DNA of 57,907 nucleotides, filler included, from Sphacelaria rigidula (Eukaryota): NCBI GenBank assembly GCA_964200075.2. It is 9 parts of 9 records of this genome, joined end to end, with 100 filler letters (N's around TTAATTAATTAA, not from the genome) between each part and the next. Parts side by side here need not be neighbours in the genome. Positions count along the whole stretch, not along the records: positions 19,338 to 25,682 come from CAXNAA020020634.1; 8 more parts are not named here. One strand, 5' to 3'. Below the pieces are notes generated by a model that saw nothing but the letters and a program-made list of their open reading frames with translations, was not told the DNA's origin and made no database searches. A program made the position numbers and the translations under genes. This document shows positions 4,091 through 57,581 of the stretch, piece by piece. Within the stretch, counting starts at the first letter, position 1, and every line of letters starts with the position of its first letter.

Positions 4091-4605
4091 TTTAAGGATT
4101 GGCGTCGGTTGGTAACGTCGCTGTTCAACACGCCACTCACTGCGTAAGCTCGGCAGCCAGGTACTTCGTTCGCTTGCGTTTTGTGCGGCAAACACGCGGA
4201 TGTGATCGAGTTATTTTAGTACCATACTTTCTGTGCGGAGTTGAGAACCTCAACCTCGGACAAATGGGATGATCGTACTACGCAGTGTTGCAGTGGTGAG
4301 ACACCCATGAGGCAGTGTATCCCTTGGTAGTCTCTGAAAGCGGCGATATCAGAAAATGAAGCAAGTCGACATTGTAGGCTGTCATCGATACTTGTTCGTA
4401 CTTCGCTTTGGGCTGAACAATGTTTATTTAGTAGGATGCAGCTCACCCTTCGTGCGACCCGCCGAACACATCACGGAGCTTCGTGCTTGGTGATTGATTG
4501 CGAAACCTGGTTCGGCGAAAACCCGGCGCTTCCGTTCCGGCTTTGCAGGGATGCGAGGTCGATGGTCTTATGGTTCCGGCATGCAAGATCATAATTATAC
4601 TCCCT
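4091..4605 (+). mobile_element. Non-LTR retroelement family B (~500 bp), C-rich flanks
   Basis: Homologous to 12398-12792, 38275-38572 and 45888-46355; ends in a GGGATGCGAGGTC..ATGGTCTTATG..GCATGCAAGATCATAA motif; preceded by a C-run at 4073. Confidence 0.75.
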
Positions 4606-7758: not shown

Positions 7759-8096
7759 GTGAGGAGAGGACGACCATTTTTGATGATGTAAACGGAGACG
7801 AGACTCGCTTGACAATGAAATCTCAAGGGTTATTTTCTTGAGCTTCGCCGAGTTTTTGTGAGTTGGAACACAGAAGTGCTCTCGTTTTTATTCGCTGCTC
7901 TGGTCCATAAAGTGTTCTCAGACGTTATCTGAACCGTGCTGTGTGTGTGTGTGTGTGTGTGTGTGTGCATGTGTGTTTTCTGTGTTTGTTCCTCCACTGG
8001 AAATGTAAAACTTGCACGCGTGTGCTTACTCGTGTGTCGTGAAGATTGACATGTAAATACCCTTCTCTTGAGGGGGGGTGGGGGTGGTGGGGGTTC

Positions 8097-8161
8097 TCAT
8101 TTGTTGCTTGCCTTGGTCGTTTGACTATTTATTGACCACGCATCCCTTCCGAGACGGAGCA
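8097..8161 (-). mobile_element. LINE family A, short 3' fragment
   Basis: Reverse complement of the family-A terminus, abutting a G-rich tract at 8072-8094. Confidence 0.75.
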
Positions 8162-8826
8162 CGCGGGTGAGACGGGGAAAGGCACCTTTCTGCACAGGCA
8201 CTTGAGGAAGTTCACATTTGGTTTTGTCAACATCGATTTTTTTCGAGATGCAGTTCACAAAATCAGTCGAGAGAGATCGACGAGGAGCACGCAGCCTTGC
8301 CCTTACCACAGCCCGCACCTGAAGCAGTATCACTCCCGCACGCCCGTTTCGATTTTCGGGTGTCCAGCTAACTTTCCGTCCGGTTTTCGGGACTCGGCCA
8401 TCACAAAAGACACCCCGTTTGTGAGCGAAGCTTCTTACAAAGCCGACCGGCTCGTCGACGTGAAAAACTCAGCAGTGTAGACAAAGATTATAAAAGTACG
8501 CCGCTGCGAGACCGTAAGATACGAATCGAAATCGAAAAGTCAAATTGACACGAAGGAAAAAAAGTCCGTGAAGTCGACCTTCAGTTTTTGAGGTTGGACA
8601 AGATTCGATTCGAAATCAGCTTTTTTGTTTTTCATTGCATTCATATTATTTTTTTTCACACTCATTTTCTCCAGTCATCGTGCATATTTTATTTTATTTG
8701 TATTTTTACTANNNNNNNNNNTTTTATTTTGTTTTTTTTCTCTCCCCCCCCCCCCCCCCGATGTTTTCCATAGTTATTTTAGTTGTCTACTCGAGGGATT
8801 TTTTTTTCATGTGTTTCCCGCCCAGG

Positions 8827-9848
8827 ATTGACGTGATCCTCAGAAACTCGCACCTAAACACTGGGAATAAGATATGTATCCTGATGAACGTGGTTGTACC
8901 AAAGCTGGAATATGAAGGAGAAGTATGGGAGTGGAACGTGAAGGTGGTGAAGAAGTTGGAAACAGTACAAATGCCTGCAGCTGAGAAAATACATGGGTGC
9001 CCGAAACGATGAGTAACACAGCATTGAAAGCAGAGTTGGGATTGTACTCGCTTGAAACTAACAGAAACATGAGGAAATTGCGATGACAATATAGCGTAAA
9101 GAGCATGCAGAGAAAGAGATTGCCAGCCATAGTTGATGAGGCTGTATGGAAGAAAAGTACGAAAGGGAAGCCTGGAATAGGGTGGGATGAACAAGTGGAG
9201 AAAGTATGGAAATAGATAGGAGGAAACCAAGCCACAACACTGACCATAGGTGAAGGCTCGGAGTACAAGACAAAAGTAAGAGACGTGATAAAAATGAGGG
9301 GGAAAGGAGCGCTCAGACGCGAAGTAGACGAGGAAGAACACCTCAAGATATACCGAGGTTGAGAGAGGGGAGAGGGACGAAAACGTATTTGCATGGCACA
9401 ATGGACGTGGCGAAAATTTTGAAGCTGCGATTTCGGGTGGGGGGACCTGGACCGGGAGAGGGGAGGAGGAAGTAGATGCGCAGAACTGCCCCTGTGGCGA
9501 AGCAGTAGAGCATAACTCATATTGTGGCAGAATGTAAACTATACAAGGAGGAACGGGACGTGCTAGAGGGGGAAATGCGGGACGTGAAGGAAGATGACAT
9601 GAAATTGTTTGATGCATTATTATCCAGTAGCCAAAAAACGATAGTTATACCAGGAGATAAATGGTGGCCACAGACGGCGAAACAAGACGGGGATAAGATA
9701 TGTAGAAAGTTTTTGTGTAATGTATGGAAGAAACGCGATGGGCTCCCGAATGTTGGAGGTGGGCTTTATTAGGAGTAGGAACGGTGCTCCGTCTCGAAAG
9801 GGATACGTGGTCAATGGTCAAACGACTGAAACAAAGCAACAAATGAAT
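8827..9848 (+). mobile_element. LINE family A, 5'-truncated (~1 kb): post-RT C-terminal ORF2 remnant in the RFC intron
   Basis: Decayed translation VVPKLEYEGEVW...KLETVQ...ALKAELGLYSLETNR...RKLR typical of the non-LTR ORF2 region after RT, then a CPCG..THIVAEC cysteine/histidine motif; multiple stops and frameshifts; many copies in the window. Confidence 0.85.
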
Positions 9849-10660
9849 CTCCCCCTTTGTGTATGTTCCTTATGAAATGACGTCCAGAACGTCTGTCCCT
9901 CATGTCCTTCATGGCATTTGAAAACAGTCGTCGTATGTAGGCAGGCCACACAGCACACATCTATGTGCATGGCGAACTCCGGTGCGCAACATACAAGCGC
10001 CGGAAACAGACAAATGCGAATTCACAGACTAGAGCTGTTGCACGAGGGACATGGGCGGAAGGACCCGCGGTTCTCCAAGCCTGTCCTGCGGGATCGCCCG
10101 TACCCTAGCCAACCCGGTGAGACGGTGCACTAAGGATCCAGCAGACTTGGAATCGCCAGCTCATCCGGGTACCCTGAGTCCTATCCAGTAGCCTTTGCCA
10201 ACCTTCAACTCCTTGCCCACATTACAAGCGAAGGAACATCTGTGTATGCCTAGCTTTTCGGAGTATCTTCTGGCAACAAAGAGGAAATGCTGTAGTGGCT
10301 TTTCACCGCAAGAAGACGGAGGGTTCCCGATTTTTTTTTTTTCTCGGCGGCGTAATGTAGTTACCCCGGAGACGTTCAACAGTTGCTGTAAAACCGCTTC
10401 TTCCGTCAAGCGTGGCGCTGGCTCTCCGTCCCGAGCAGGATCTAACTGGTCGTTCGTTGGAGCTCTTGAGGCGGTTTTGGGCATTCCAAGAGAGTTATAT
10501 TCTCTAAAATTTCACCGAGGATATCCCATTTGAAACCGGCCATTTTTGGCACGTTTCGACGTGAGTAGGCTGTGAATAGTGAAAGTGTAGGCACGTCCCC
10601 CCCAGGAAGATCTCGCCTGTTTTTGTTGTCGCTGTTGTTATAATTATAATCCATTGCAAG

Positions 10661-12162: not shown

Positions 12163-12385
12163 AAGCGAGAATACGGTCGCTATTTCAGGAGAAGGGTAGG
12201 GACCACAGACTGTAAAACAGAAAGGGGACAAGATAGATGACATGTTCTCATGTAATGTTTGGCAAAAAATGTCATGGCCGCCACATGTTGGAGTAATCTC
12301 TATTAGAACTAGGAACGGTGCTTCGTCTCGAAAGTGATGTGCGGTCAACTGTCAAATGACTAAGGCGAGCAAAAGATGAGCGCCC
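12163..12385 (+). mobile_element. LINE family A 3' fragment
   Basis: Homology to 9630-9848 and 13280-13500. Confidence 0.8.
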
Positions 12386-12397
12386 TCCGCCTCCCCG

Positions 12398-12792
12398 TAG
12401 GCGTCGGTTGGCGATGACGCTGTAAAACACGCCACTCACTGCGTAAGCTAGTCAACCAGGTTACCGTTTTTTTTACGCGCTTGCGTTTTTTTGCGGTAAC
12501 CATGATGGTCGAGCTAAATCATGTTGTGCGGCGTGGGAGAACCTCAACTCCGCACAATGAGGATGATCGTACTACCTAGTATTTATATGGTGAGACACCC
12601 ATGAGACAGTGTATAAGCCGTGGCTGTCTCTGGAATCGGCGATACCAGAAAATAAAGCAACTCATCGTACAGTAAGCTGTCATCCAAATCCAAGATGATC
12701 AGTAGGCCTCGGGCCGAACAATCTTGGCAGGATGCAGCTCACCCTTCGTGCGACTCGCCGAACACACCACGGCGCTTCGCGCTTGGTGATTG
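12398..12792 (+). mobile_element. Non-LTR family B copy (cut by contig end)
   Basis: Homology to 4091-4605; starts in the C-rich tail of the preceding LINE A copy. Confidence 0.8.
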
Positions 12793-12892: not shown

Positions 12893-12955
12893 TGTAGGGA
12901 TGCGAGGTCAATGGTCTTATGACTATGGCATGCATGATCATGAGTACACCCCCAC
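12893..12955 (+). mobile_element. Non-LTR family B 3' terminus
   Basis: TGTAGGGATGCGAGGTCAATGGTCTTATGACTATGGCATGCATGATCATGAGTACACCCCC. Confidence 0.8.
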
Positions 12956-13500
12956 CAGGAAGAACACCTGGAGATATACGGGGGGTTGAGAGAGGGGATA
13001 GGGATGAAAACATTTACATGGCCCAATGGGCGCGGCTAAAAAAGTAAAACTGCGATTTCGGGTGGGGGACCTGGACCTGCCAGAACGAAGAAAGAGATTT
13101 ACCAGTAGTCAAAAGGTGGAGGAAGTAGATGCACAGGACTGCCCCTGTGGCAAAGCAATGGAGGGCAGAACTCATATAGTGGAAGAATGTGAACTATACA
13201 AGGAGGAACGGGACGTGCTAGAGGGGGAAATGCGGGACGTGAACGAAGGTGGCATAAATTCGTTGGATGCATCAGACAGTAGCGAAAAAACGATGGTTAT
13301 ACTAGGAAATAGATGGTGGCCAGAGACGGCGAAAAAGGACGGGGGTAATATATGTAAAAGGTTATTGTGTAATGGATGGAAGAAACGTAATGAGCGCCGG
13401 AATGTTGTAGGCGTCTATATTAGGAGTGGGAACCGTGCTCCGTCTCGAAAGGGATGCATGGTCAATGGTCAAGCGACCAAGGCCAGCAAAAAATGAGTAC
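12956..13500 (+). mobile_element. LINE family A 3' fragment with an open C-terminal ORF remnant (13026-13496)
   Basis: LRFRVGDLDLPERRKRFT...CPCGKAMEGRTHIVEEC...WKKRNER...GCMVNGQATKASKK*; nucleotide homology to 9330-9848. Confidence 0.85.
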
Positions 13501-13653
13501 GCTCGCCTTCCTCGTCTTCCTGCGGTCAATCTAGGTTCCGGTCGGTCCCGCTTCCACTCATGAGCACGCGGCTGCGGCCAAAATTCAGGAGTGTATGCGC
13601 ACAAGGGTGGCAACAAGGGCCTACTCCACTACTGATCTATTCACCAAAAATAG

Positions 13654-18900: not shown

Positions 18901-19967
18901 AGTAAAAATGAACTACAGTTGAGGAGATGCGACATGGGTGCAAGATCAAAACACGCTCGACGTGTGTCACCTTCCCCCCGAAAGTAGACTTATTCAGAGG
19001 AGAGCGATAGCACGCTGCCTCTTTCATACCGTTATATTTGGCCGCTGATGAAAAGGCTCGCATGTATGTACGGTAGAAACCGGGTTTTCGCCAGATTGAG
19101 AGTCCAACGATTGATTGAGAGTGAGAACCCAACGGATAGGGAAACCTCACCCAGTCATTGACTAACAGCCGATTTTATATTTTGGGGTTCATACAAAATA
19201 TGGGGCTGAAGTGGCATATCTGTCTTGCACGAAAGACNNNNNNNNNNNNNNNNNNNNNNNNNNNNNNNNNNNNNNNNNNNNTTAATTAATTAANNNNNNN
19301 NNNNNNNNNNNNNNNNNNNNNNNNNNNNNNNNNNNNNAAGAGCCAGTGTGGGCGACTTTCGATGGCAAGAACACGCGCCACAGGTATCAGATGACACCCA
19401 AACCTGAACTGTGATGTACCGCTGACCCTTCTTCGTGCACTGCAAAAAAAAGCGCAGGCTAAGATGCCTTGCAGCCAGATAACACTCGGCAAAAGTGGTA
19501 AAAATACGAAATGATACATGTGCATATATGTATATATATATTAAGAGAAATATGTCGAAAGCGGAGAGCAGGGATATGCTACATTTGGGTATTTCGAAGA
19601 ATCAAACTCTACGCAGTCAAATTTCGGTAGAGTGTTGAGATCGTGTTCAACGATACGCAGATATTGTGCAGAGTGTTGCGACCGTACCTAACTGTACCGG
19701 ATATTCGGGTAGGGTGCGGACATGGGACTATCGCAACACAAAAAGTTCGGGAGAGTAAAACACCCGGGTACTCGCCCTACCCAACACACCTTTGTAGAAG
19801 TTTCTTTGTTGGAATCTTCGTCCGGGTGCTCGTCTTCTCTTCCACCATTTTCCTTTATATAAACGCTGTAGCAAACCACACCATCAGCCGTATCGCTAGC
19901 GCGCTGATAAATTGTCGTCACCTTTAGCATCACGGGATTGTCCAGTGCAACCCTGATGAACCGCCGA

Positions 19968-20170
19968 ATTGATTGATTGGTTGATTAATTAATTGTCGCA
20001 CTTTAACTGACCCCCCCCCCCCCTGCAGGGATTCAGCCGGGATCACATGGTGGACGTGCCGAAGAAAAACCAAAACTGACACATTCGCTGAAGAAAAAGA
20101 AGGAACAGAAAAAGTCGAACAGAACGATATATTAGTCGAAGACGTGAAATAAAATATAATAAAAAAAATC
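19968..20170 (-). mobile_element. Retroelement family C 3' end ((ATTG)n tail on the + strand)
   Basis: TTGATTGATTGG...TTGTCGCACTTTAACTGA...TTCAGCCG; near-duplicate at 20788-20990. Confidence 0.65.
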
Positions 20171-20290
20171 ATCAAAAGCTTAGGGTTAGAGTTAGTATGG
20201 GCGGAAATATGGGAAATTGTAATAGACTCACCGCATTTCCTCCTTGCTTGCTGCCCTAGAAATGGAGCAACGTCGAAGTGGGGGGGGGGG

Positions 20291-20356
20291 CGTACTCATT
20301 TGTTGCTTGCCTTAGTCGTTTGACCATTGACCACGCATCCCTTTCGAGACGGAGCA
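20291..20356 (-). mobile_element. LINE family A short 3' fragment with 18-bp TSD
   Basis: Flanked by the direct repeat AACGTCGAAGTGGGGGGG at 20269-20286 and 20357-20374. Confidence 0.85.
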
Positions 20357-20787
20357 AACGTCGAAGTGGGGGGGAACGAGGGGGGTCAAGCACCCACGTT
20401 CTAGCGCCCCCATTTTCCGAAAAACCATCCCCCGATTGTTCCCAACGCTCACATCATATAAATGCCCCCCCCACCCCAAATCGAATGAACTGGTGGAGTT
20501 ATGCATCCACAAGCATGAAGCATAGCTCCGTGTACCCTACTGGCACACGTTCTACTGCTACTGCTGTATAGGACGTTATTAATTGGCGAATTGTACAACA
20601 CACAGCGCTGTCGTTTTTTCTCGCGTTTTGGGTTTGTGTAGTCGTCGATTGATGGTAGACAAAGGACAGCTGAGTAGTGGTGTTGGCAAACCGCCCCGAC
20701 CGTGCCGATGAGGGCCGGGTGGGTTACAAAGATCGGAGTCGTCGGTGAAAGAGGTTGGGGGCTACGCTTGGAGTCGCTGGTGAGCTT

Positions 20788-20990
20788 TATTGATTGATTT
20801 ATTGATTGATTGTCGCACTTTAACTGATCCCCCAGGGGTTCAGCCGTGGTCTCATAATGATAGACGTACCCAAGAAAAAGAAACGAAATTCAAACACGCT
20901 CTGAGGAAAAAAAGAAAAAAATAGGAACAGAAAAGAAGAAAAGAAAGAGGGGTCGAACAGAACGACGTAACAGACTAAGTCGTGACAAAA
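20788..20990 (-). mobile_element. Retroelement family C 3' end
   Basis: (ATTG)n then TTGTCGCACTTTAACTGATCCCCCAGGGGTTCAGCCGTGGTC, followed by an A-rich body. Confidence 0.65.
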
Positions 20991-21325
20991 AAAAAGCCAT
21001 AAAAATTCAACTAGCAGGGGTTCGCTAGTTGCCGCAGGTCAAGCTTAAACTCGAGGCGAAATGTCTACGGGGCGATTATAGTAGGTGGCGTAGTTCGTCT
21101 CGTTGATTTAGGCACCGCACTCGATCGTTGTTGTGGCCGGCGGTGAGTGACGAGCGCACACGGTTTTGTGTATGCTGTACATAGTGGGGCTGATGTGATT
21201 TGTGAGAGGAGACAAGCTCACCGCTGCGGTTCCGGGCGGACGTTCCGAAACTTTGTTGTTGTTGTCGCTGCTGTGCCGCCGCCGCCGCCGCCGCTGCTGC
21301 TGCTGCTGCTTGCTACGCCCGACAG

Positions 21326-21400
21326 GTTGACACGGTCCTCTTGGATAAGACCGGGACTCTGACGATGAACAAGCCAATCCTCACCGACATCGTAGCGCAC
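21326..21400 (+). CDS. P1B-type heavy-metal-transporting ATPase, phosphorylation-domain exon
   Basis: CAG acceptor, VDTVLLDKTGTLTMNKPILTDIVAH, GTGAGT donor; contains the invariant P-type DKTGT motif. Too short for the ORF track. Confidence 0.92.
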
Positions 21401-22055
21401 GTGAGTAGTAGTCGCTCATGTACATCTACTTCGAAGGACTTTGATCCATCCTCCTGTGGTCTGTCTGCCTCCGGGAAGTTGCCGTAAAGGGGGTGCGTTG
21501 CGCGAACGAGGGGTGAGTGGTACGCCCCGTGTGAGTTCGTGGGTACTTTGTTAATTTTTTGTCGTGCTTTGCACGCCACGCCGCGAACAGACGGCGCAGT
21601 GTCAATAAGTAATACTGTGCTATCATCGGTGTGGGACGGGACGTGACCGTATTGTGTTACGTGACCCATGTTCCGAGTCCAGCGAGATCCTAGATGAGAG
21701 ACAAAGAGGATGTAGAAAATTTGTTTCGCAGTACGGGGCAAACCTGCACCAGAATGGGCTTTCGCGTGTGCGTAGAAAGAAATGTGGGCGGCTAAACGCT
21801 GGTTCTGCTGTCTCCTCAGGGCGTCTGCGGGGTGTCATCGTCGAGAGTTTGGTTAGAAATTTCGCGTCGCCTTCGCGGGATACGAAACGTTCGGGGGCAA
21901 AGAGGCAACAGGAGTGGCTCTTTGCATCTAATGTAATGCGCGGGTTCAGTTTCACCGTTGTGGGGCGAAATTTCTGTACTGCTTCTGGCCACTTTCGGGT
22001 ATTTATGTTGCAGTGTCGGGTACAGTTGAATGTGTCATGAGTTATGCCTTGAAAT

Positions 22056-22350
22056 ACATGATAATTGATGAGTATAATTATTGATGAGTTGGGAGTGGTT
22101 AGGGTTGGATGATTATTTTTTGAATTGGATAAAGTGTTTTTGGAAAAAAGGAACTTTATAATTTATGAGTATAATTATTAATGAGTTGGGAGTGGTTGGA
22201 GTTGGATCATTATTTTTTGAATTTGATATATATTTTTTTGGAAAGAAGGAACATGATAATTTATGAGTATAATTATTGATAAGTTGGGAGTGGTTGGAGT
22301 TGGATGGTTATTTTTTGGATTGGATTATTTCTCTTTGGAAAAAGGGGACA
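22056..22350. repeat. Intronic tandem repeat, three copies of a ~98-bp AT-rich unit
   Basis: ATGAGTATAATTATT.AT.AGTTGGGAGTGGTT...TTTGGAAA occurs three times. Confidence 0.9.
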
Positions 22351-22508
22351 CAATATATATATATATATATATGTATGAAGTTATCTGGAAAGTGCTCAGG
22401 CATCTTCACACCTGAACGTGATCATTTCCGTCGTTTTTTTCTCATGTGCGTTGTGTGTGTATTTGTGTGTGTTTCCTTAACTTTCATAATCATTGTTTTC
22501 CCATCCAG

Positions 22509-22737
22509 GGTCCTGGAAACACGCGCGATTCGGTGCTAGCACTAGCCGCCGCCGCGGAAGCCCTAAGCGAACACCCGGTGGGCAGGGCGATCGTGGAAGC
22601 CGCGCGCGCCCGGGGACTATCGAGGCGATTGCCCAAGGTGGACGGCTTCAAGGCCACCCCTGGGATGGGCATTTCGTGCACCGTGCTAACAGTGCCCGGT
22701 AGCGGCGGGAAGACGAAGAAATCCAAGGGTACGGTAG
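22509..22737 (+). CDS. P1B-type ATPase, N-domain exon
   Basis: CAG acceptor (phase 0), GPGNTRDSVLALAAAAEALSEHPVGRAIV...FKATPGMGISC..., GTGAGT donor (phase 1); SEHP and GxG motifs are diagnostic of P1B ATPases. Confidence 0.92.
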
Positions 22738-25368
22738 GTGAGTCAACCAGCTTTTCCAGTCTGATGAAATAATACCGTTGGCCTTCCGTGAGGATTCCGC
22801 ACCAAAACATGCTCGTACTCCATGTGGTTTGCGAGGTTTACGGTGCAGGGGGTATAGGTTGGCCATGGTCTGTCGAGACGGCGCGGGAGTTTGGCCGCCA
22901 CCTCGGTTGATACAGCGGTGGAGTGACACTGGGTAACGCTCGTGAGCACCAACACATGAATGTGTAGTGAACCTGTGAGTTTGCATTGGTGTGGACGAAT
23001 ATCGGGGTCTAAACATCCAACACGGGGCACTTTCGACAATAGCCCCCCCCCCAAAAAAAAAAAAAGAAGAACAGCCCAAAACTGTCGCGAAGAAAATGGT
23101 GATGCAGCGCCTGATGTTTGGTTTGCGGCTGCAAGAAGCGCCTCATATGGTGGACATTGGTTGAAACGAACCCAAGCGTTCGAATTCCCAGCTGCTCATT
23201 TTGCCCGGAGCTTTTCATTTCGATTCATTTGTAGATATTACCTCCCCGAACTAGCCACTTGTTGTGGGGGGGGGGGGGGGTATCACAGAAAGTGTCACGG
23301 GGGGTGGAATGGGGGGGGGGGGTGGGNNNNNNNNNNTTCTTCGGGGCCAGCCCCCCCCCGGCCGGGCGTGTTGGGGGGGGGGGGGGGGGGGGTATCACAG
23401 AAAGTGTCACGGGGAGTTGAATCGTGGAGAGGGTATGGGAACGTCGGTCATCTCGGGAAGACTTTTGGCCGTCGTGAGCGAACGGCAAAAACACTCGGAG
23501 AAGAACCGATTCGTCTGGTGTTCTAGTCGTCGCTGTTGCTAGTGGTTTGATTAGGAGTGTTTGGCGACTGCATGAAGTACAGAAGGTCCTCGAGTAGACC
23601 GTACCCGAATAGGAAAGGTCAGGAGGGCCATCTGAAAGATTGTATCTCGACAGAAGAAAACGTCAGATTCGGAATATGTGAGGAAATTTACGCCTATTAA
23701 TAGCGAGGATACGGAGTGGAGTTCAGGAGAAGCTCTGTTCGGCGCATGGGTGGCACACGATGAGAATGCGTTTTTTTTTGCCTTTTTGCTACGTTTCTTT
23801 CCCCCCCCAGGTACAGATGCAGCATATATCCTGGGTTCCTGTGCGGGAAGAATTCTGATCGACAACCGTGTTTCTGGCGTGCTTTTACAATTCTGCACGT
23901 CTGAGCTGAAATGGTACTTTCCACATGCGCGAAACGTGAAGCTAAACCTTTTCTAGCCTAAACCGAATTTTTCCGAGTAAAACCAGGATCGATTTTCATC
24001 TACAGTAGAACGAGATGCCAAAACAACGGCAAGCCCGTCATTAGTTCATTTTTTATTTGAAAAGCATGATTATTTTTGAAACTGTACACCGTGCCGGTGT
24101 CTTATCGTTTCCCGAAAGTTCGGGTAGTCACCCTTTACTGCTCAATTAGCCTACTCGAAAGCGTGGAGCATGACAAGTCGAGAATAGCATGCAAAACATT
24201 CGAAAAATGCCTGAATATCGCCGACGATATCATTTCTCGCCTCCACCGCCACACTTGTTTCGCGAGCTGCGAAATCAAACAGCACCTGCTTTTTTTTTTC
24301 TTTCAAAAATCGAACAGGCATCCGCAACTACATATACCCAAAGGCTGCTCCTACTTTTTTCTTCGACAAACGGTTGTTTTTTCCAGCATAATTTTTTTCC
24401 TGACGCTTTTCCTCAGTACACCTTTCTCCGAGATCGGATTTTTTTTCCCGTCAAGGGTCTTGTGCCGCCCATAGTGCGACAAGCAAACCGTTTCCGGAGA
24501 TATTGAAGTTCGCCGAAAAAGCGTTTCATCAGAAAGTCGTCCATCAAGCACACTGCAGCTAGCTGTCCAGCACCGCACATGCGTTCCATGCACTTATAGC
24601 TGCTTATATCACAGTACAGACAAGTACGCGCAGTCTGCGGCGCAGCTACAATCCAGTGCAGCCAGTAACATCGTGCGGTAGTGCGGACAGCACGCACAGC
24701 TGCAGCATTTTCCTGCAGGCACTCACATGAGCATGAACGACAGCAGCTTACTTTATCTTACAGGCAGGACACAGAGGCCGCTATTTCGTTTATCGCATGA
24801 ATGATGGCGAAAAAAAAAAGTATGATGGTAGCGGGCGCTCCCATGTTGGTGTCAAACGAGCCAATTTCTCCCCAGAGTTGGACACGGTTTCGGAAAAGGG
24901 TCTTCATTGAGGAAATCTGCGGAAGGCATCACTTTTTGAACTTATTTTCGATATATATATATATATATTCGAATTGATAGGAGGCGGCCACAAGATTCAA
25001 TCATGGGATCAGTAGGGGGTGAGCCCTCCAGTAAGCGGTTGGCTCTTAACTCGTTCAAGTTAAGGCCCAAGATGAGAAGAATCAGATCGACTGTATACGG
25101 TCCTCATCTTTTGACCCAGAAGCTCTAAGATGGAGTAAAATTCTGGGATATCATTCATGTCCCCCAAAAGACCAAACTAACCGACGAAGCCTATGGTTGG
25201 AAGCCGCTTTTCCCGGAGGGACCTTGACTTCGTCCAGTCGGCTCTGCTCAAATTCCCCTCCCACACACCCACCGTCTATCTCTTTCCTCTCACCTTTCCA
25301 ACGCTCAGCACTACTGACACAAATCAACAAACTCCGCGCACTCCCCCAAAACACACAATGATACACAG

Positions 25369-25588
25369 TGAAGCGGACAACACAATCACCGCTACTGGTG
25401 GGTACGCGGACATGGCTGCAGCAGAACAGGGTGGTGATTCCCCCGGAGCTAGGCGGCAACGTGGCGTCACTCGAATGGCAGGGGAAGACGGTGGTGTTTG
25501 CCGCGGCGGGGGGTGTTGCCGTCGGCGCTCTAGCCGTCGCTGATCGGGCGAGGCCTGAGGCTCGAGAGGCTGTAGCAGCGCTGCACAG
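25369..25588 (+). CDS. P1B-type ATPase, next exon
   Basis: Phase-1 acceptor matches the previous donor; LLVGTRTWL...LEWQGKTVVFAA...ALAVADRARPEAREAVAALH matches the P1B pattern (G.T.V.VA...G.IAVAD..RPEA...V..L); GT donor at 25589. Confidence 0.9.
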
Positions 25589-25611
25589 GTGGGGGGTTGG
25601 GGGGGGGGGTG

Positions 25612-25671
25612 CTCAGTTGTTGCTTGCCTGAGCCGTTTGAGAATCGACCACGGCTCCCTTTTGAGACGGAG
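25612..25671 (-). mobile_element. LINE family A short 3' fragment between G-runs
   Basis: Reverse complement of the family-A terminus with G-runs on both sides, just inside the ATPase intron. Confidence 0.7.
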
Positions 25672-26446
25672 GGGGGGGGGGGNNNNNNNNNNNNNNNNNN
25701 NNNNNNNNNNNNNNNNNNNNNNNNNNTTAATTAATTAANNNNNNNNNNNNNNNNNNNNNNNNNNNNNNNNNNNNNNNNNNNNATATGCTCGAATCGAGCT
25801 GATTTGGTAAACTTGACGAGTTATGGTTGGAGATGCAAATGCGGCACTTACTGCTGGCCCAGCCTGTATATAGTTCTGAAACCAAGCATTCGATCGAAAC
25901 TGCAACTTGTCGACCGCGATGTTTACATATTGTTGTTAGTGTACACAGGCGGCAGTGGCAATAAACATCATGGCTGCTGCCAATAGTCAGTGAAGCGCAG
26001 TACACCGACGATGGTCAAAACTGCTTTTCACACGAGGGTTTCTGCGCTTGATCCGTCCGACGTACGCGCAGGCGACTTTCATGTGTGACCTTGCCCACTG
26101 CAATGCGAGAGGTGACGGATGCTTGCTGTTGTAACGCAAAGTTGCTTTGCACAGTCACACAGCGGAAACCATAGCATCGAGCTTCATAGCGAAGAAAACA
26201 TAACTGCAACCACTGACCGTACTGTGTGTGTATTGTATGAAGCAAAACCTGTGGCCACAATCACCCTGGCATCGATAACTCAATCTTCGCCAACATGGCC
26301 CTATAGGCAGGCCATATTTCCCACTCGTGGCGGCACAACGACGCATGAATATCTTGCGGGTATCGGCGGTCAAGACCTGGAAGCACCTTCTAAGGGCTAG
26401 CAATGTGGGATTAACAGTGTTGTGCCCCAATTTCGCGGCTGCGGCC

Positions 26447-26678
26447 TGTAGCCCAAAATGGCGCCAAGCCGTTGCGTTTCACGTGTAGGATACTGGATGA
26501 TGATTATGTGACAGGGTACACTGTGGATGATGACCCTCACCGTGTAGCCTTTGATGTGGAGCCAGTGGGCTGCTGTTGCTTACTTCGTGAATGGAAGCTC
26601 TGAGAGAAGTTCTTATCGATCGTGAGGCCAGTGGATTCTGGAGAAGTCCCTTACTGAATAGCCCTCTTGTCCAGATCA
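26447..26678 (+). repeat. 5' LTR (~232 bp, TG...CA)
   Basis: Starts TGTAGCCC and ends CCAGATCA; followed after 2 nt by TGGCAGAGGCGA (putative PBS at 26681); repeated at 31924. Confidence 0.88.
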
Positions 26679-26872
26679 TCTGGCAGAGGCGATAATATCT
26701 AGATACTACTCGGCACTTTGTTTGGAGGAGTTTGGGCTGAGGTACGAGACGGGCAGCCGGTACGGTTTGTGCCCAAGGAGTAGTGCTGAAAGCACTTGGT
26801 TTAAACGAGAGGAGCAGCTTGCAGCAAGACCAGCGTTTGGAGAAAGCTCCGCTGGCGACGCTCAAGTCAGGC

Positions 26873-29800
26873 ATGGCTCAAGCGACAGCAACACCACTTG
26901 TATTGGGTGAGACGTTACATCCGCCGCAATATGGTAAAGAGTGAAACGAAGCAGCTAGTCGCAAGTTTTCTGGGGCCCATCTCGATTACGAACAGCGGTT
27001 GCGAATCGCTAATGAAGAAGTAAGGGTGATACACGCGCAAGTGCCCGTTGGGCAGTTGATTCCTGCATACATTCGTCAATGTTTCGAAATCCTGTACACG
27101 GACGGACGAACAATGACCTCAGCGGAGCTCGTAGATGCTGTGAAGCAGCATGCTGGGTATACCACTACCGGTGGCCGAGAGGATAAAACTCAGGCTGCGG
27201 CTGATATCAGGCGCATTCTCAGGATGGCCCAAGACGGACCATTGTCTGTACGGGATAGGGCAATGACAGTCACTTCAAATTTGGAACAGTATTTAAAAAA
27301 AAGATGTCGGTCGAAGCCATGTACAGGTCACAAGACAGAAGCTGGCTGCCAGGTCCGGTAGAGTCAGTTTCCATTGCCATGGTGGACGGCATTGCGCCTC
27401 CGGCGTTCAAGGCTCATGTCAAGACTCTCTTGATGTACGAGGAGGGTTGGAAACGAAACCCGACTTTAGTGATGAAGACGATATTTGAGGCTACTGACAA
27501 GTCGAAACTTGTGGAATCTGTAGAACGCCGTGATGGTGGGGCAAACACGGGTGGATCTCGCCGCAAACAACAACAGCAGCAGCAGCAGTCGTCTGCGCGA
27601 GGGACATCTACTCGCGCATGCTATAACTGTGGCGACCATGGACATCTTTTAAAAGATTGTCCCAAGCTTCGCGCCAAGGGCGCTAATCAAAATAGTCCGC
27701 AAGATCAGTCAGGATCCAGCGGCGGTCGTCATGGAGGAAAAGGTAGGGGTCATGATGGACGCGGACGCGGTGGCCGCGGCAGCAATCGAGAGGCGACGGA
27801 TGGTGGATCCTCCACTACAATATCTTCGGCTGCATCTTCAGAACCTGCCTCAGGCTCTTCTGGCCCGTCCATGCCGGGGCGGGCAGTTTATGTAGGAGGG
27901 AGTAGTACTTCGATGGGTGGTGCTGGAGCGGACAGCTCGCAAACCACCGGCCAGGCAGGATCCGTGTCTAGTATCGCTCCCGCTACTGCGACGGCGGCAA
28001 CGGCGCCGTCTACATATACGAAATCTTGGTCGGGGTGGAACGCCGATTCGGTGTCGACAACGCCACTTTCTGGAGCGCAGCCTTGGCGACAGGTGACTCT
28101 AGCCAACAATCAAGGTTTCCCCCCGACAGGTGTAGTGCCTGTCGATCGCACTGCACGATGTCTCCGTGCTGACCTTTGTTTGATAGGTACGGTAGGATCA
28201 TTGATGGCACGAGTTATTCTGGACTCTGGGTCCGCGCTCACGTCGATCAGCGTGGGTTTGCTGGCCCAGTTGTCTTTACTCTGCGGCAACGCTCAATTAC
28301 AGTTGCGGTTCCAGAACGGTCCCCAAACCGCTCACACCGCTACGGGAGGTAACACACAAGACGGTCCCAATCTCCGTAAGTGTACGCACTCCGTGGGGGG
28401 CTGTGCAGTTGCCACCCATCACCTTCGCTATTATGCCCGGTAGGGATGATGGCATTCTCTTCGGCATGGCAACGATAAAGCAGATCGGCATTGATTTGTA
28501 TCCTCTGGCATTGGAGTTACGCCCCCATGCCGTGCCGGTTCAGACGGACGTCGAAAACTCTAGTTATCTAGCGGCTAGGCGGGTGAACATCTCTGCCGAT
28601 GCGTTTCAAACTGCGTGTGTGAAGGAAACTCCTGCGGATGAGGCAGTGGAGCGATTGGTGGACCGGGGCCCGGACATGTTTCTGGACCCTGCAGAAGAGA
28701 AGGAGGGGAGAGATCGCGCGCTGGCAGATAGCGTGCGACAGGCCGAACAGCAGGGCCTGAGCGCCGAGGGCGCATATCGTCTGCGCGATATTTTGTCTCG
28801 TCGCGTAGATACATTTCGACGTGCGCTGTGCGGTGATCTGCCAGCGCGCGTAGAGCCGATGCGCGTGCAACTCAAGTCGCAGGCGAAGGCTGTAAAGGCC
28901 AAGCCAAGGCGATACGATCCGGTGAAAACCGGGTAACTGGCTGCATGCATAGCGGCGTTGGTGGCGTTTGGTTTGGTGGTGAGGAACAAACAAGCGGTGT
29001 GGGCGAGTCCGGCGATGGCGGTGCCGAAGAGAGATACTTTCCATTTGGTCAGTGACTACCAAGCGGTGAACGCGCAGATAGAGCAGTCTCCGGGGGTAAT
29101 GCCGAGTCAGGAGGACATGCGGGAGTTACTGGGAGCGCAATGCTTTGGCAAATTGGACTTGCTCCAGGGGTGTTGGCAAATACCTCTGGCACCGGACGCA
29201 CAAGAGTTCTTCACGATCGTCATACCAGAAGGTCTGTTTACGCCAACTCGTGTTGCTCAGGGTGTGCTGAATGCTACATCCTATTTTCAAGGTGTGATGA
29301 CTGATCTTTTGCAAGGATTGGACTGCAAAGTGTGGGTCGATGATGTTTTTCATTTCGCCGATTCAGAAGAAGCGTTGCTGACGTTGTTAGTCGGGATTCT
29401 CGGACGTTTGGAGAGTGTTGGTATATTCGTCGCTGCTCACAAGTGCACGTTTTTTTCTCGAGAAATAGTTTGGTGTGGAAAGGTGTACTCACACGGAACT
29501 TTGTCTCATGATCCTGTACGCATCCAAGGGCTGAGTACAATGCGACGTCCTCAAAATGCAAGTGAGCGAATGCAGTTTTTGCAGGCGGTCAATTGGTTGC
29601 AAACTTCGCTACCTCGCATGGCAGAAGTAGTAGCGCCACTTCGTGCGTTTTTAGAACAACCGATGACAGGGGCGTCGCGTAGGACCAAGCGGGTGGCGCG
29701 AAATCGTGTCATTCCGGAGGACGCCTGGACGGAGGATCGGGTGCGGGCATGGCGTGCAGCGCAGGATTTGGTGGCGCAAGCGGTCCCACTGTATCATCCT

Positions 29801-31842
29801 CGTCCTGGGTGCGTTGTGTTTATGTTTCCCGATGCAAGTGACCTTCACTGGGAGTCTTTTCTGACGCAGGTGCCTGTCACAGAGTTCAACAGTGACATGT
29901 GGTTGGACAATATGTCACACGAACCTTTGGGGCTTCTGAGTGGTAGTTTCAAGGGTTCACAGTTGCGGTGGGCGACAGTGGATAAGGAAGGTTTCGCGAT
30001 TGTAGACACATTCCGTAGACTCGAGTATATGCTCTGGGGTGGTGTTCGTATCTTCACTGATCATCGGAATCTGAAGTAAAATTTCAACCCTGAGGAGTGT
30101 GTCACCTCGGTCACAAAAGCCATGGCACAGAGACTGGAGAATTGGAAAGGTGTGCTAGGTCAGTACCGATACGCAATTGAACACATCCCGGGAGAAAAAA
30201 ATGTTGGGGAGATTTGTTGTCTCGTTGGGTCCAGGTCCCCGCCGTACCTATTCGTTCCGTTGCTGTGTACAGCCCGTGTGATGCTGATGATTCGCTGCCC
30301 TCGTTAGATGTACTTCGCAATGCGCAGCGGAAAACAGTCGGCGACGGTGTAACCTCTTTTCCCACGACCTTCGGTCAAGCTACCTTGGCTGATGATGGTT
30401 CGTTTCGGGTGCATGTTGGCAGTCGTGATGTTTTGTGGATTCCGCCAGAGGATAAGACTCTGCAAATTTGCCTTATGGTGTGCGCTCACATGAGATCGGC
30501 TGGGCACCGTGGTGTGGCGCCGACTGTGTTTCGTCTGAAAGAATACTGTGTGTGGCCTCACATGGATTCTCAGGTTCGCGCGTTTGTTCGCCAGTGTTTA
30601 CACTGTGTAGACACTCGTGCTGGTGAAATTGTACCTCGTCCGTTTGGCGATACTGTGCGTGGTACTGCGCCAGGTGAGGTGGTCCACTTTGACTTTCTCT
30701 ACGTCAGGAGTAGCGGGCCTGAAGGTGATGATGCTTTGCCTGAGGACGATGGTTTTCGATACGAACCAGTCATAATGGATGATTTATCTAATTTCGTGTG
30801 TCTGGAGCCCACCGGAGCTTGTACAGCCGAGGTCACGGCTCAATATTTGTTGCAGTGGTGTAACACTTTGGGGGTGCCACGGGTGTGGGTGAGCGATACA
30901 GCTTCGCATTTCAAAAATCGAGTGATAGTGCATCTGAGCGACGCGCTCCAGGTGAAACAACAATTTGCTGTTGCATACACCCCATGGTCAAACGGTGCAT
31001 GCGAACGTATGGTGAAGGAGGCTATTCGTGCGCTGAGCTCTATTTTATCAGAACAGAGACGACCGGTGTCGGATTGGGATAATGTTCTACCGGCAGCTCA
31101 GTGGACGCTGAATACGCCTTTTCGTGAACGATACCGCAACACTCCATACTGTGTGATGGTTGGACGGGCGCCGCGTACCGCGTGCTCAGCTTTGGTTTCT
31201 GCCACTGGCGGCGAGTGGAAAATCGATGTCATGAATGCTGACGCGTTGCGTGACAAGGTTAAGAACGTCGTTGAAGAGCAAGTGAGGTTTTGCAGAGAAG
31301 TGCACGCAGCTGTTGCGGTGTCCCGAGAAACTAAACGTAAGCTTGCTCAGGGCCAAGCTGTGTTGCCCAAATTTGCGGTTGGTGATTTTGTTTTGTATAC
31401 TCGTGTTCGTAGACAAGGTGTGACGCCAAAACTGATATCCACATGGACAGGTCCGTGGCGAGTGGTCAGAGCCGATCACGCTCACGTGTATTCGGTGCAG
31501 AATATTGTTTCGGGCGCCGTGCACTTGGCTCATGTCGCTCGTTTACGTTTTTATACTGACTCACAGTTGCACATCACTGCGGAACTCAAAGATGTTTTTC
31601 AGCATTCGTATCCTCATGGGGAGTGTCGGATGAATGCTTCGGTGCACGTCGCAGAGGACGATGATGGAAATGTCATAGTTTTGGTCGATTGAAATGGCTT
31701 CGATTCTGAAGAACGTGCGTGGGAGTCTCTTCGGGAAATTCATTCTTCGGCGCCTGAATTTGTTGTCAAGGAATTGCGTAAACTGCGGTTGACTCGGGCG
31801 TTGACCAGTAAATTAGCGTCGAAATATGGCATTTCTTTGTGA
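26873..31842 (+). pseudogene. Gypsy gag-pol polyprotein, disrupted by stops and frameshifts
   Basis: Gag from MAQATATP; CCHC knuckle CYNCGDHGHLLKDC; protease ILDSGS; RT KLDLLQGCWQI...WVDD; RNase H FPDASD...KEGFAIV...TDHRNL; integrase HHCC plus DDE core and WTGPW; chromodomain-like VLVD*NGFDSEERAWESL. Split over ORFs 26999, 27304, 28403, 28958, 30122 and 30214. Confidence 0.95.
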
Positions 31843-31923
31843 TTTGGCGCATGCAAATTCGGCTTGGTGATTCTTGTTGGTTGTCAAGCTCGTTCGTTTG
31901 TCTTGAACTCGCTTTGGGGGTGC

Positions 31924-32127
31924 TGTAGCCCAAAATGGTGCCAAGCCGTTACGTTTCACGTGTAGGATACTGGATGATGATTATGTGACAGGGTACACTG
32001 TGGATGATGACCCTCACCGTGTAGCCTTTGATGTGTAGCCAGTGGGCTGCTATTGCTTACTTCGTGAATGGAAGCTCTGAGAGAAGTTCTTATCAAGCGT
32101 GAGGCCAGTGGATTCTGGAGAAGTCCC
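31924..32127 (+). repeat. 3' LTR (cut by contig end)
   Basis: Direct repeat of 26447-26650 with 6 substitutions in 204 bp by manual count; short GGGGG tract upstream. Confidence 0.92.
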
Positions 32128-44035: not shown

Positions 44036-44750
44036 CCTCCCATAGTTGATGGGGCTATATGGGAAACGAAAGGACAGGCACCGAGAAGGTGGGATAGCGT
44101 AGTCGAAAAAGTGTGGAAGGGTATAGGAGGGAAGCAATTGACGAGATCATGGCCACGGATGAAGGTGTGGGGTACAAGACAAACATAAAACGAAAAAATA
44201 GAAATAATGGGGAAACTGGCGTTAAGAGAGAAAGTGGACGAGGGAGAGCTCCTGGAGATGAACGGGGGAGTTGAGGAAGAGATCGGGATGGTAACATAAA
44301 TGCACAGTCAAACGGACCACGCTGAGAACCTGAAAGTGCGATTTCGGGTTGGGGACCTGGATCAGCTAAAAAGGAGGAAGAGCTACAGCGGTAGTCGGGT
44401 AGAGCAGGAAGTAATTCCACAGAATTGCCGTTGTGGCAAGCCAAGAGAGAGTACAAGTCACGTAGTGGGAAAATGTGAACTACTGCATACATGTTAGATT
44501 AGATGATCAATGGCTATAACATGAAATCATTCGGTACTTTATATAGAAGCGAGGAAAACAATCGCTGTACGACGAGATAGATGATGGCCACAGACGGCAA
44601 AACAGGAAGAGGATACTACGTGAGACACGCAAAAGATTCTTATGCAAAGGTACGGAAAAAAAATGTAGTGAGCGCCGAATTGTGAGAGTGCCTATTGTAG
44701 CTTCAGGAACGGCGCTCCGTCTCGAAAGGGATGCGCGGTCAACGGTCACG
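44036..44750 (+). mobile_element. LINE family A, older diverged copy
   Basis: Homology to 9125-9830 (CATAGTTGATG...GCGATTTCGGGT.GGGGACCTGG...GCTCCGTCTCGAAAGGGATGCG). Confidence 0.8.
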
Positions 44751-44830
44751 CAAAAAAAAAAGGCATCATCATCCTCGTCACCAACAAACAACCCTGGGTT
44801 CATTTCAATCCACTCCAACCGCTGTCTCTC

Positions 44831-44951
44831 GCCTGGTCCGGCGGAAACCCGTGGTGCTCGGTCCCGGCTTTGTAGGGATTGGAGGTCAATGGTCTTACAA
44901 CTGCGGCATGCAAGATCATAAGTACCCCCCCCCCCCCCCCCCCCCCCCCCC
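44831..44951 (+). mobile_element. Family B short 3' fragment with long poly(C) tail
   Basis: ...GCATGCAAGATCATAAGTAC followed by ~27 C. Confidence 0.8.
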
Positions 44952-45887: not shown

Positions 45888-46355
45888 TTTGAGGTTTGGC
45901 GTCGGTCAGCCATGGCACTGTAAGGCACGTCACTCCCAGCGTGAGCTAGGTAACCAGGTTCATGTTTTGTCGCTCAAGTTTTTGTTATGATACATCATAT
46001 CGTGCGGGGGATTGAACCTCAACTCCGCGCACATAGGAAGATCGCACTACGTTGTCGTTTAATGGCGTTACACCCACGAGGCACTTAATCGTGTGGCTGT
46101 CTCTAAAATCGGTGATACCAAAAATGAAGGAACTCATTCGAGTCTGTCATTCATACGACGCAAGTTAATTATCTCGCGTCGGGCCAAACAATCTTGAAGC
46201 TTCATACAACTCATCAAACGCATCACAGCGCTTCGCGCTTGGTTATCGATCGCGAGCCTGGTCCGGCGAAAGCCGGCGTGCTCCGTCACGACTTTGTAGG
46301 GATACGAGATCATCGGTCTAAGTGACTACGGCATGCATAACTATGACCACCCCCT
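45888..46355 (+). mobile_element. Non-LTR family B copy, C-rich flanks
   Basis: Homology along its length to 4091-4605. Confidence 0.78.
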
Positions 46356-47056
46356 TCCCTGCACCATACATGGTCGCTGGAAGCTATACCTAGGATCGCT
46401 ACAGATGTACCGGTTGTCCTCTCTCGATTTCCCACTTCACGTTTGGGCGCTTCTCATTCCACAGGGCGCTTCGAGGAGCCTCGCGGCGAGCGGACCGCCG
46501 AAGCCGACGGCAGTGACACGGGGAAAGGCCAGAAGTGGTGATTTACAGAAGCTCGTCGAGGCCGCCCGCATAGGTCAAGACGAGAGCAACAAGAGAAGGG
46601 GGAATGGATCGAGGAAACAGAGTAAGGCGGGGCTCAGGAGCAGAGGCCGAAGCCGGAGACGAGACACGATGGGCCCCGACAGCCCTTTCTGGCCGAAGCA
46701 TTGAAACTTGGTCCCAGCCTGAGTAATATAGAATCCGTTTAGTGATGTGGAGTACATCATCCTTTCCTCTCGTCCACTCACCCAAATACAGAGCACATTT
46801 GGATATGTGTCGAGATGTTGCTGGAAAGTATGGTTCGTAACTCGCCGTAAGGCTTTGTTCCCACGGTGCCTTGCGACTGCACCGCTTTGCTGCCATGCCA
46901 CCGGAAGTTCTGGTATCTGCGGCTGGCAAGATCTCCTGTCGACACCCTTCGATATGTGGACTCCTCGGGAAAATCAGGGTGTCTGTCCTTCTCCAGGAGA
47001 AAACTTGTCGTTGGATACGTACGTGAGGGGCCGTGGGCGACGGGAGAGGGGGGGGG

Positions 47057-47153
47057 TGTACTCATGATCATGCATGCCATAATCGTAAGACCGTTGACCT
47101 CGCATCCCTACAATGCCGGGACGGAGCACGCCGGGTTTTCGTCGGACCAGGCT
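47057..47153 (-). mobile_element. Family B short 3' fragment between G-runs
   Basis: Reverse complement of the family-B terminus; G-runs on both sides. Confidence 0.8.
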
Positions 47154-47299
47154 TGGAGGGGGGGGGGGGGGGGGGGGGTTTTTTTCTCCATTTTTTTTTT
47201 TGTAACGCCACGGCGTTGCTTCCGTGTTTGGGTTTTTGTGTGGANNNNNNNNNNGTGTCGTCCGCCCCGCCCGTGGTGGGGGGGGGGGGGGTGGGGGGT

Positions 47300-49326: not shown

Positions 49327-49779
49327 CCACTCGAACGTGTATTTCTGGGCAGGCAGGGAGGCAACCAGACACAAACACGCAGAGAAGGAAACAAAGGAAG
49401 ATTTATTATCGGGAGTGTATGCGTTTTGCGATTGTTCGTGAATGATGTGTTCGAAAATGGCTTGGAGCGGCGACATGCACGTCACATTTATTTCGCCGTG
49501 GCTGTGGGGTTTGGTTTGTGTCTATATCTACTCTGCTGTCCTGAAATCTTTGGGTTTCATCACTTCCGTAGTCTTCTTTTCTCTGCTGTCCCTTTTCCCC
49601 ACCCTTCTCTCCATATATATATATATACATATTAATATAAAATTTCCCCCGTTCCTGTTTGTGTATGCCAGAGCAGTGTGGTACCTTGTTCCGTTGTGTT
49701 TCTTCATGGAAGAGACGGCCCATACCCTAAAAGGAGCGGTAGTAGTAGATGAGCTGCCATATTTTCCTTCTATTATATT

Positions 49780-49930
49780 CTGTTCTGCTCTACCTTTTCT
49801 GTTTTTTGTTCTTCTCATCGTTCTTCAGCGAGTGTTTCAGTTTGTTTTGTCTTGGGTATGTCTATCATATGACCACGGCTGGATCCCTGGGGAGTCAGTC
49901 AAAGTGCGCCACTCAGCCAATTAATCAAAG
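49780..49930 (+). mobile_element. Retroelement family C 3' end
   Basis: TTCTTCAGCGAGTGTT...GACCACGGCTGGATCCCTGGGGAGTCAGTCAAAGTGCG...AATTAATCAA. Confidence 0.65.
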
Positions 49931-57485: not shown

Positions 57486-57581
57486 TGTACTCATGATGAT
57501 GCATGCCATAATCATAAGACCATTGACCTCGCATCCCTACAAAGTTGGGATGAAGCACGCCGGGTTTTCGCCGGACCAGGC
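57486..57581 (-). mobile_element. Family B short 3' fragment between G-runs
   Basis: Reverse complement of the family-B terminus; G-rich on both sides. Confidence 0.8.

Follow-up and report, generated by a model that had tools for sequence, protein, structure and literature searches.

An oligo-C-tailed LINE insertion flanked by a C-run target site duplication in Sphacelaria rigidula

The repeat at positions 20291-20356 (minus strand) of the Sphacelaria rigidula DNA analysed here is very probably a recent and heavily 5'-truncated copy of a non-LTR retrotransposon of the APE type, one that encodes EN and RT in a single ORF, most likely falls in the RTE-X clade, and ends in oligo-C instead of poly(A). 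The whole stretch analysed, called the window below, comprises 57,907 bases in nine pieces of about 6,345 nt each, joined by spacers of the form N44-TTAATTAATTAA-N44, and contains in addition four N10 gaps. Logan contigs from four public sequencing runs (X1, X3, X4 and X6; three studies), which are contigs and not raw reads, were placed on the piece at 19338-25682.

Results

Anatomy of the insertion at 20269-20374

On the plus strand, the locus reads AACGTCGAAGT (20269-20279), G11 (20280-20290), a 66-nt body (20291-20356), AACGTCGAAGT again (20357-20367) and G7 (20368-20374). On the minus strand, which is that of the element, this corresponds to C7-ACTTCGACGTT, followed by the body, which extends from TGCTCCGTCTCG (its start is also given as TGCTCCGTCTCGAAAGGG) to AAATGAGTACG, and then by C11-ACTTCGACGTT-GCTCC. 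The direct repeat formed by C7+ACTTCGACGTT is exact over 18 nt, with copies at 20269-20286 and 20357-20374 of the plus strand, and can be extended to 23/24 nt with one additional T. The initial annotation had described this locus as a 66-bp family-A 3' end on the minus strand, flanked by a direct repeat, with a C-run that merges into the target site duplication (TSD) and without poly(A); this description matches base for base, C11 being found at the 3' end of the copy in place of poly(A).

The body, assigned from both sequence and translation, aligns over 74 nt at 98.6% identity with L011 (reference positions 1986-2059), an independent copy of the family from a metagenome. Its oligo-C tail is merged with the C-run that opens the downstream TSD copy (C11 on the minus strand, G11 on the plus strand; 20280-20290), and since the upstream TSD copy has only C7, at least four C of the C11 are extra. 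In the downstream TSD copy the unique portion, ACTTCGACGTT, lies at 20269-20279 (minus strand), and the GCTCC that comes after it (20264-20268) matches what the LINE itself has at the 5' junction, which we read, from these letters, as microhomology. The G7 of the upstream TSD copy (C7+ACTTCGACGTT on the minus strand; 20357-20374) is crossed by X1, X3 and X4 contigs, from two studies, with more than 31 letters on each side, and one X4 contig (20102-20302) and the X1, X3 and X4 contigs that start from 20331 have fewer than 31 letters within the element and were not counted as bridging the element junctions. No empty allele of the insertion was seen in the contigs of the four runs, so that the earlier presence of a G-run at the target is deduced from the TSD alone, and the upstream C7 might be the tail of an older insert instead of the original target.

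The 66-nt 3' module is plainly extremely abundant in these contigs. The bin that contains the body has a summed word depth, which is not a copy number, of 3.3 million in X1, versus about 31 in the next bin. Past the 3' end of the element (20280-20283) the consensus is poly-G, with 968, 476, 860 and 87 records at 20280 in the four runs. Upstream, the majority of the records run on into the LINE (CCGTTCCTA...), and a subset stops at 20354/20357 and then enters poly-G (148, 95, 112 and 29 records), which represents a recurrent truncation beside a run. In 135, 51, 120 and 5 contigs we also found joints that go back by 70-77, with short sides and an intervening sequence that is not known, which suggests tandem units.

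Family A is an APE-type LINE

A scan of metagenome contigs with a 20-nt core returned 69 loci, among them three true copies (L011, L018 and L050), which end in ...ATGA(G/C)TACG followed by C8, C11 and CCTC7, respectively. The other 66 loci belong to a bacterial gene (...MGCVVNGPGE...) with an identical 20-mer, a chance match in both DNA and peptide (GCVVNG) that could mislead k-mer searches.

The element strand of L011 carries a 681-aa open frame with a reverse transcriptase domain (RVT_1, 2.8e-33), a FADD motif and a C-terminal Cys/His motif, and the stop of this frame is the TGA in AAATGAGTACG, 5 nt before the C-run. The ~60-nt 3' end that is common to families A and B is therefore coding sequence in the LINE, and the 66-nt fragment at 20291-20356 consists of the last ~20 codons of the EN-RT ORF (residues ...APSRKGCVVNGQMTKASNK), the stop and GTACG. 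A full-length relative, P0122 (1360 aa), is 90% identical to the L011 frame over 100% of the frame, has an identical C-terminus, and combines in one ORF the Pfam domains Exo_endo_phos (170-392; 3.4e-12), Exo_endo_phos_2 (279-414) and RVT_1 (740-989). P0123, which is 77% identical, has the same APE and RT layout. The ~165 residues upstream of the APE domain in P0122 (1-165) have no Pfam match. The initial annotation had called the repeat a LINE and had asked whether its endonuclease is of the APE or the RLE type; the RT domain of the L011 frame and the APE and RT domains of the 90%-identical relative bear out the first point, and Pfam settles the second in favour of APE. We consider the assignment of family A as an APE-type LINE with a C tail to be firm.

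Among named proteins, the closest relatives come from Ectocarpus, with at least 20 of them at 39-73% identity; P0005 reaches 58% over 99% of the query, and the value of 73% belongs to shorter proteins. The C-terminal motif APSxRGxVVNG is common to the LINE frame and its Ectocarpus relatives. Family A is probably a member of the RTE-X clade, a label that derives from kinship to unnamed Ectocarpus proteins and from matching terminal features.

A Pfam scan of 206 of the 232 stop-to-stop frames with 80 aa or more revealed no intact LINE RT in the window, and the sole transposon domains in the scanned frames are those of Ty3/gypsy at 27259-31692; the other frames lie over the LTR element at 26018-31812 (22 frames) and over the A-rich beginning of piece 7 (4 frames). 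The family-A copies of the window all align to the 3' part of the L011 frame, starting at reference positions 999, 1304, 1506, 1691/1828, 1831, 1985, 1986 and 1988, which is the 5'-truncation series expected of a LINE. The longest copy (8823-9855, plus strand) covers reference positions 999-2056 at 75% identity with a degenerate frame, and ends in ...AATGAATCT and then C5. Among the shortest are a copy of ~77 nt at 8086-8162 (minus strand; reference 1985-2057), 5'-truncated and followed by C5ACCAC5AC7, and a 5'-truncated copy of ~72 nt at 25600-25671 (minus strand), which lies just inside an intron and has C12 on its 5' side, at the piece end, and the tail C11AAC6. The copy at about 44040-44761 is an exception: it stops at reference position 2021, has neither the last ~30 nt nor a C tail, and is bordered there by A10, which may reflect a deletion or a different 3' processing event.

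Non-autonomous partners share the 3' end of the LINE

Family B, of about 500 bp, has a fixed 5' start, GGCGTCGGT, in three copies, and aligns to the LINE at reference positions 2000-2059 only. Its frames of 80 aa or more gave no Pfam hit, and we take it to be a non-autonomous rider on the LINE machinery. Short family-A derivatives that start near reference position 1828 have a few non-LINE bases in common upstream, and may be another rider. From the LINE reading of the initial annotation, family B and the short A derivatives have to be excepted as non-coding riders.

For these two groups a classical SINE was considered and discarded: no tRNA, 5S or 7SL head with a Pol III promoter was found with ARAGORN or at the Rfam gathering score, and Rfam at E-values up to 10 on families A and B returned chance-level rows only, with no hammerhead and no small-RNA head. 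Over the window as a whole, ARAGORN gave 0 tRNAs and Rfam no family at the gathering score. On 16 copies of the shared 3' end, RNAalifold found 6 pairs at -2.0 kcal/mol and 0 compensatory changes, and hence gave no support for a stem-loop.

The full-length family-B copy at 4101-4604 (plus strand) is ~500 bp long, non-coding and LINE-like in its last ~60 nt only, with a C10 located 18 nt upstream, and the copy at 45898-46359 (plus strand) has the same 5' start. Three 5'-truncated copies are found at 44831-44951 (plus strand; C27 tail), at 47049-47178 (minus strand; C21 on the 5' side and C9 as the tail) and at 57471-57605 (minus strand; C-rich tracts on both sides). Several copies are arranged head-to-tail. 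The short family-A derivative at 12164-12388 (plus strand; reference 1831-2057) has a C-rich tail right past which the B copy at 12400-12792 begins, the family-A copy at 12958-13502 (plus strand; reference 1506-2052) begins directly after the C-rich tail of the B copy at 12893-12956, and the short family-A derivative at 56910-57137 (plus strand) is followed by C8 and then by a partial copy at 57153-57220. The break between pieces 2 and 3 (12792/12893) falls inside family B, at B-reference positions 4496 and 4544, which are 47 nt apart, so these pieces may be genomic neighbours and not unrelated contigs. The remaining copies show 70-87% identity with the L011 reference or among themselves, and their flanks are no more than C-rich; the copy at 20291-20356 is the only one with a clean TSD containing unique sequence, the other TSDs being degenerate.

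C-runs at the element ends

We scored 16 family A and B 3' ends, 13 from the window and 3 from the metagenome; the copy at about 44040-44748, with its missing ~30 terminal nt and its A10, was left out. In 12 of the 16 (9/13 in the window and 3/3 in the metagenome), seven or more of the 10 nt that follow are C, compared with 0.9% of the 10-mers of the window (binomial 5e-22). At least 5 C were present at 15 of the 16; four ends have fewer than 7, and the C-poorest flank, at 4602, has 4 C in 10. A 5' end could be placed in 12 copies; in 7 of these, the 30 nt upstream contain five or more consecutive C, compared with a background of 3% (2e-8). The runs are coupled to the strand of the element, C-runs accompanying plus-strand copies and G-runs minus-strand copies, so that C is always on the element sense strand. 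The claims that C-runs abut the 3' ends of A and B copies, and often their 5' ends as well, are both upheld by these counts, and for the 3' end also by the same poly-C flank in the four runs.

These numbers could in principle be obtained if the LINE had a C tail and no preference for G/C runs, the C-runs in the 5' flanks and in the TSD being older tails or products of slippage and the endonuclease having another or a relaxed specificity. The copy density is very high, with about 16 A/B ends in 57 kb and, in the run contigs, a summed depth five orders of magnitude above that of the flank, so landing on an old tail would not be rare; at 12956/12958 and 12388/12400 the 5' flank is demonstrably the tail of another copy, and there is one clean TSD only. 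However, the 7/12 5' flanks with a C-run, against 3%, exceed what the copy density predicts, the clean TSD begins exactly at the run, and truncation next to poly-C recurs, with ~100-150 records in each of three DNA runs and 29 in X6, in agreement with insertion within runs. Furthermore, landing on old tails is itself predicted by C-run targeting, and 'C-rich' TSDs were recorded independently by the Ectocarpus curators, in the available part of their table (PMC12477816). In our view, the absence of a preference is therefore improbable, and insertion directed to G/C runs is the better reading.

It is scarcely credible that the G/C runs are sequencing or assembly artefacts such as two-colour poly-G read ends: some runs do lie at piece ends or by N10 gaps (8712-8721, 23327-23336, 47245-47254, 25671-25682), Logan contigs break at runs (for example, an X1 contig ending at 20013) and the data are contigs instead of raw reads, from which the run lengths are likewise not taken, but the runs follow the element strand, unlike a poly-G artefact, they are found inside three unrelated metagenome contigs with unique sequence on both sides, the TSD G7 is spanned in three runs from two studies, and '(C)n' ends were curated independently in Ectocarpus, in the part of the table at hand (PMC12477816). 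An artefact was thus rejected on strand coupling, spanning contigs and independent curation.

In the 57 kb of the window, G/C runs that reach 8 nt or more number 27, against an expectation of about 1, and 10-11 of these, by hand count, touch the ends of A/B elements. Many of the 27 are found in introns and adjoining assembly gaps. The suggestion that the element seeds or lengthens poly(G/C) tracts is thus plausible for part of them, and at least one long run has another origin: the C13 at 20011-20023 lies inside a different high-copy repeat (19955-20140, 20772-20950, 49760-49945) whose sister copies have C3-C4 there, and it is an expanded internal tract of that repeat and not a LINE tail. A third short repeat (...CCCCGTGACACTTTCTGTGATA) occurs on the minus strand at 23281-23310 and 23393-23425, followed by C15 and C20, with C12 preceding one of the copies; the surrounding bins have a depth of 10^4 in the Logan contig data, and this repeat may be another rider with a C tail.

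Discussion

Proposed insertion mechanism

The anatomy of the TSD agrees with a nick made just 3' of a G-run and with priming on an oligo-C RNA end, where we infer both the nick site and the RNA tail from the sequence. In this mechanism, the endonuclease would cut the bottom strand where the G-run ends on its 3' side (5'-...GAAGTGGGGGGG^AACGA-3', window plus strand), and the oligo-G 3'-OH would pair with oligo-C located at the RNA 3' end, or close to it, and prime the cDNA. The four additional G/C (11 versus 7) would be copied from the RNA, so that oligo-G priming on an oligo-C end makes the run grow from 7 to 11. The RNA may acquire its C end through templated read-through or through reiterative copying. 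A second nick would be made 18 nt away, and the 5' end would be sealed via the GCTCC microhomology. The additional T in the upstream TSD copy is unexplained by this model. Family B and the short A derivatives would use the same machinery through the common 3' end. Every new copy would bring a C-run, old tails would become targets, and in this way head-to-tail arrays would arise, as would copies with runs on both sides, such as those at 25600-25671 and 47049-47178. A G-run nick with priming on a C-rich RNA was the central proposal of the initial annotation, and it is the best reading of the anatomy of the locus: the clean TSD starts in a C-run, as expected, and the proposal stands with the nick site and the RNA tail as its conjectural parts.

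A further-reaching possibility is that this genome owes its long poly(G/C) tracts chiefly to the LINE and its riders, through priming at G-runs, reiterative copying of C, 'tail-only' events and a self-reinforcing loop, with ~10^5 copies of the 3' module. We regard this as rather doubtful. If true, each event, even one that leaves no body or an extremely short one, would lengthen the run and make it a better target, and introns would become filled with G4- or i-motif-prone runs. The recognition module would then be the last ~60 coding nt of the ORF, so that protein sequence and cis-recognition would be constrained together.

Relation to known elements

The Ectocarpus repeat table, in the part available, describes RTEX-1_Ec32 as having a 'single EN-RT ORF; (C)n 3'' and a 'C-rich' TSD, and RTEX-2_Ec32 as having '(C)n termini/TSD' and likewise a 'C-rich' TSD (PMC12477816). 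RTEX-N1_Ec32, in the same part, is a non-autonomous element of 607 bp with '60 bp 3' end 83% RTEX-1/2' that 'can be present in tandem' (PMC12477816). Of the three Ectocarpus LINE groups named there, RTE-X alone has (C)n, RTE having (CAA)n and CRE (CA)n, and 16,418 RTE-X copies are given (PMC12477816). RTEX elements also occur in kelp, according to the sections available of another report (PMC4421812).

The resemblance of family A to RTEX-1/2 extends to the single ORF with an N-terminal APE followed by an RT (P0122 and P0123 here), to the (C)n 3' terminus (12/16 ends, the four runs and 3/3 metagenome copies), and to the C-rich TSD (one exact 18-nt TSD starting with C7, and C-runs in 7/12 5' flanks). 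Family B, with its ~500 bp, parallels RTEX-N1/N2_Ec32 of the available table as a non-coding partner of ~600 bp whose 5' origin is unknown, with ~60 bp of common 3' end and a tandem arrangement. The likeness to RTEX-1/2_Ec32 comes from the table descriptions, as far as they are available, and from protein kinship. The Sphacelaria elements differ in their host, in the identity of only 58% to the best named Ectocarpus protein, and in an abundance that is seemingly far higher, on an uncalibrated depth, than the 16,418 RTE-X copies in Ectocarpus. The initial annotation had supposed that this kind of family was undescribed. That claim fails, because an already described clade shows the same behaviour: Ectocarpus RTE-X, in the table part at hand, is curated with '(C)n 3'', 'C-rich' TSDs and a non-autonomous partner (PMC12477816). 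The LINE at 20291-20356 is a clean further example of a catalogued brown-alga element type, and not a new class.

In the available parts of the Ectocarpus source we saw no mechanistic treatment of this (C)n/C-rich behaviour (PMC12477816), and our literature search found no study of the mechanism of a poly-C-tailed LINE or SINE, returning L1 papers only (PMC12809410, PMC3415434), a weak negative as 'poly(C)' is not queryable as written. Internal poly-C tracts are known in L1 3' UTRs, from a source likewise available in part (PMC5381506). What the present locus adds is a clean TSD that places the inferred nick directly behind a G-run, a 3' UTR of almost no length, which leaves the cis module within coding sequence, a very high abundance, and a link to 10-11 of the 27 long runs, which accounts in part for the conspicuous G/C-run excess of the genome. 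For annotators, the ~60-nt module followed by a C-run marks RTE-X-type insertions and their riders.

In target-primed reverse transcription of L1 and Alu, the endonuclease cuts at 5'-TTTT/AA-3', and the exposed T-run then acts as primer on the poly(A) tail. The Sphacelaria LINE is similar in that its tail would be complementary to the nicked primer strand and its TSD starts with the tail base, and also in the 5'-truncated copies with 5' microhomology and in the non-autonomous riders acting in trans. In contrast, it uses C/G and not A/T, its tail cannot stem from ordinary polyadenylation, and it has a single ORF and a near-zero 3' UTR. Since the riders share ~60 nt of LINE 3' sequence, recognition of the 3' end would be stringent and not tail-only, unlike in L1/Alu. 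The element is thus a natural counterpart of L1, with C as the tail base, for the question of whether endonuclease specificity or pairing between primer and tail sets the target choice of a LINE.

APE-type LINEs of the R1 clade also target repeats, namely Waldo, Mino, Kibi and Koshi on microsatellites and TRAS/SART on telomeric repeats. They share with the Sphacelaria LINE the insertion into simple repeats and a 3' end that matches the target repeat, whereas their targets are di- to penta-nucleotide repeats, as opposed to a homopolymer here, and they have two ORFs and belong to another clade.

Chlamys Penelope-like elements (PLEs) resemble the Sphacelaria families more closely in their insertion behaviour, with, in the parts of the source available, a bias for (C)n and (CA)n, hard-to-discern TSDs, head-to-tail multicopy insertions and non-autonomous derivatives that share their 3' end (PMC8557442); they have a GIY-YIG endonuclease and a PLE RT, versus APE and a LINE RT here. 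That families A and B are non-autonomous derivatives of such elements is hardly conceivable: the head-to-tail arrangements in the window and in the run contigs would agree with it, but this trait and the (C)n bias, which the families here have in common with Chlamys elements, also belong to RTE-X and do not discriminate, while family A runs on into a LINE-type RT frame, P0122 has an APE (Exo_endo_phos) and Pfam shows no GIY-YIG in P0122 or P0123, there is no hammerhead or other Rfam match, and the Ectocarpus table, in the part available, gives (A)n for Chlamys families and (C)n for RTE-X (PMC12477816). With an APE, a LINE RT and no GIY-YIG, a Penelope-like identity was rejected, and family A is retained as an APE-type LINE.

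Other features of the window

A Ty3/gypsy LTR retrotransposon is located at 26446-32127, with frames that contain zinc knuckle, RT, RNase H and integrase domains. Its LTRs, of at least 205 nt (26446-26650 and 31923-32127), are 97% identical, and the right one is cut by the piece end. Two plus-strand exons, at 22509-22735 and 25367-25588, are joined in one X6 contig across a GT-AG intron of 2,631 nt; the second has a weak match to HAD hydrolases (4.9e-05) and is P-type ATPase-like by eye. Several repeats flanked by runs occur in the 22735-25367 intron and in the next one, including the family-A copy at 25600-25671 right behind the exon. Tandem repeats with periods of ~43 nt (51617-51889) and ~42 nt (53118-54073) are also present, and have no relation to the LINE finding.
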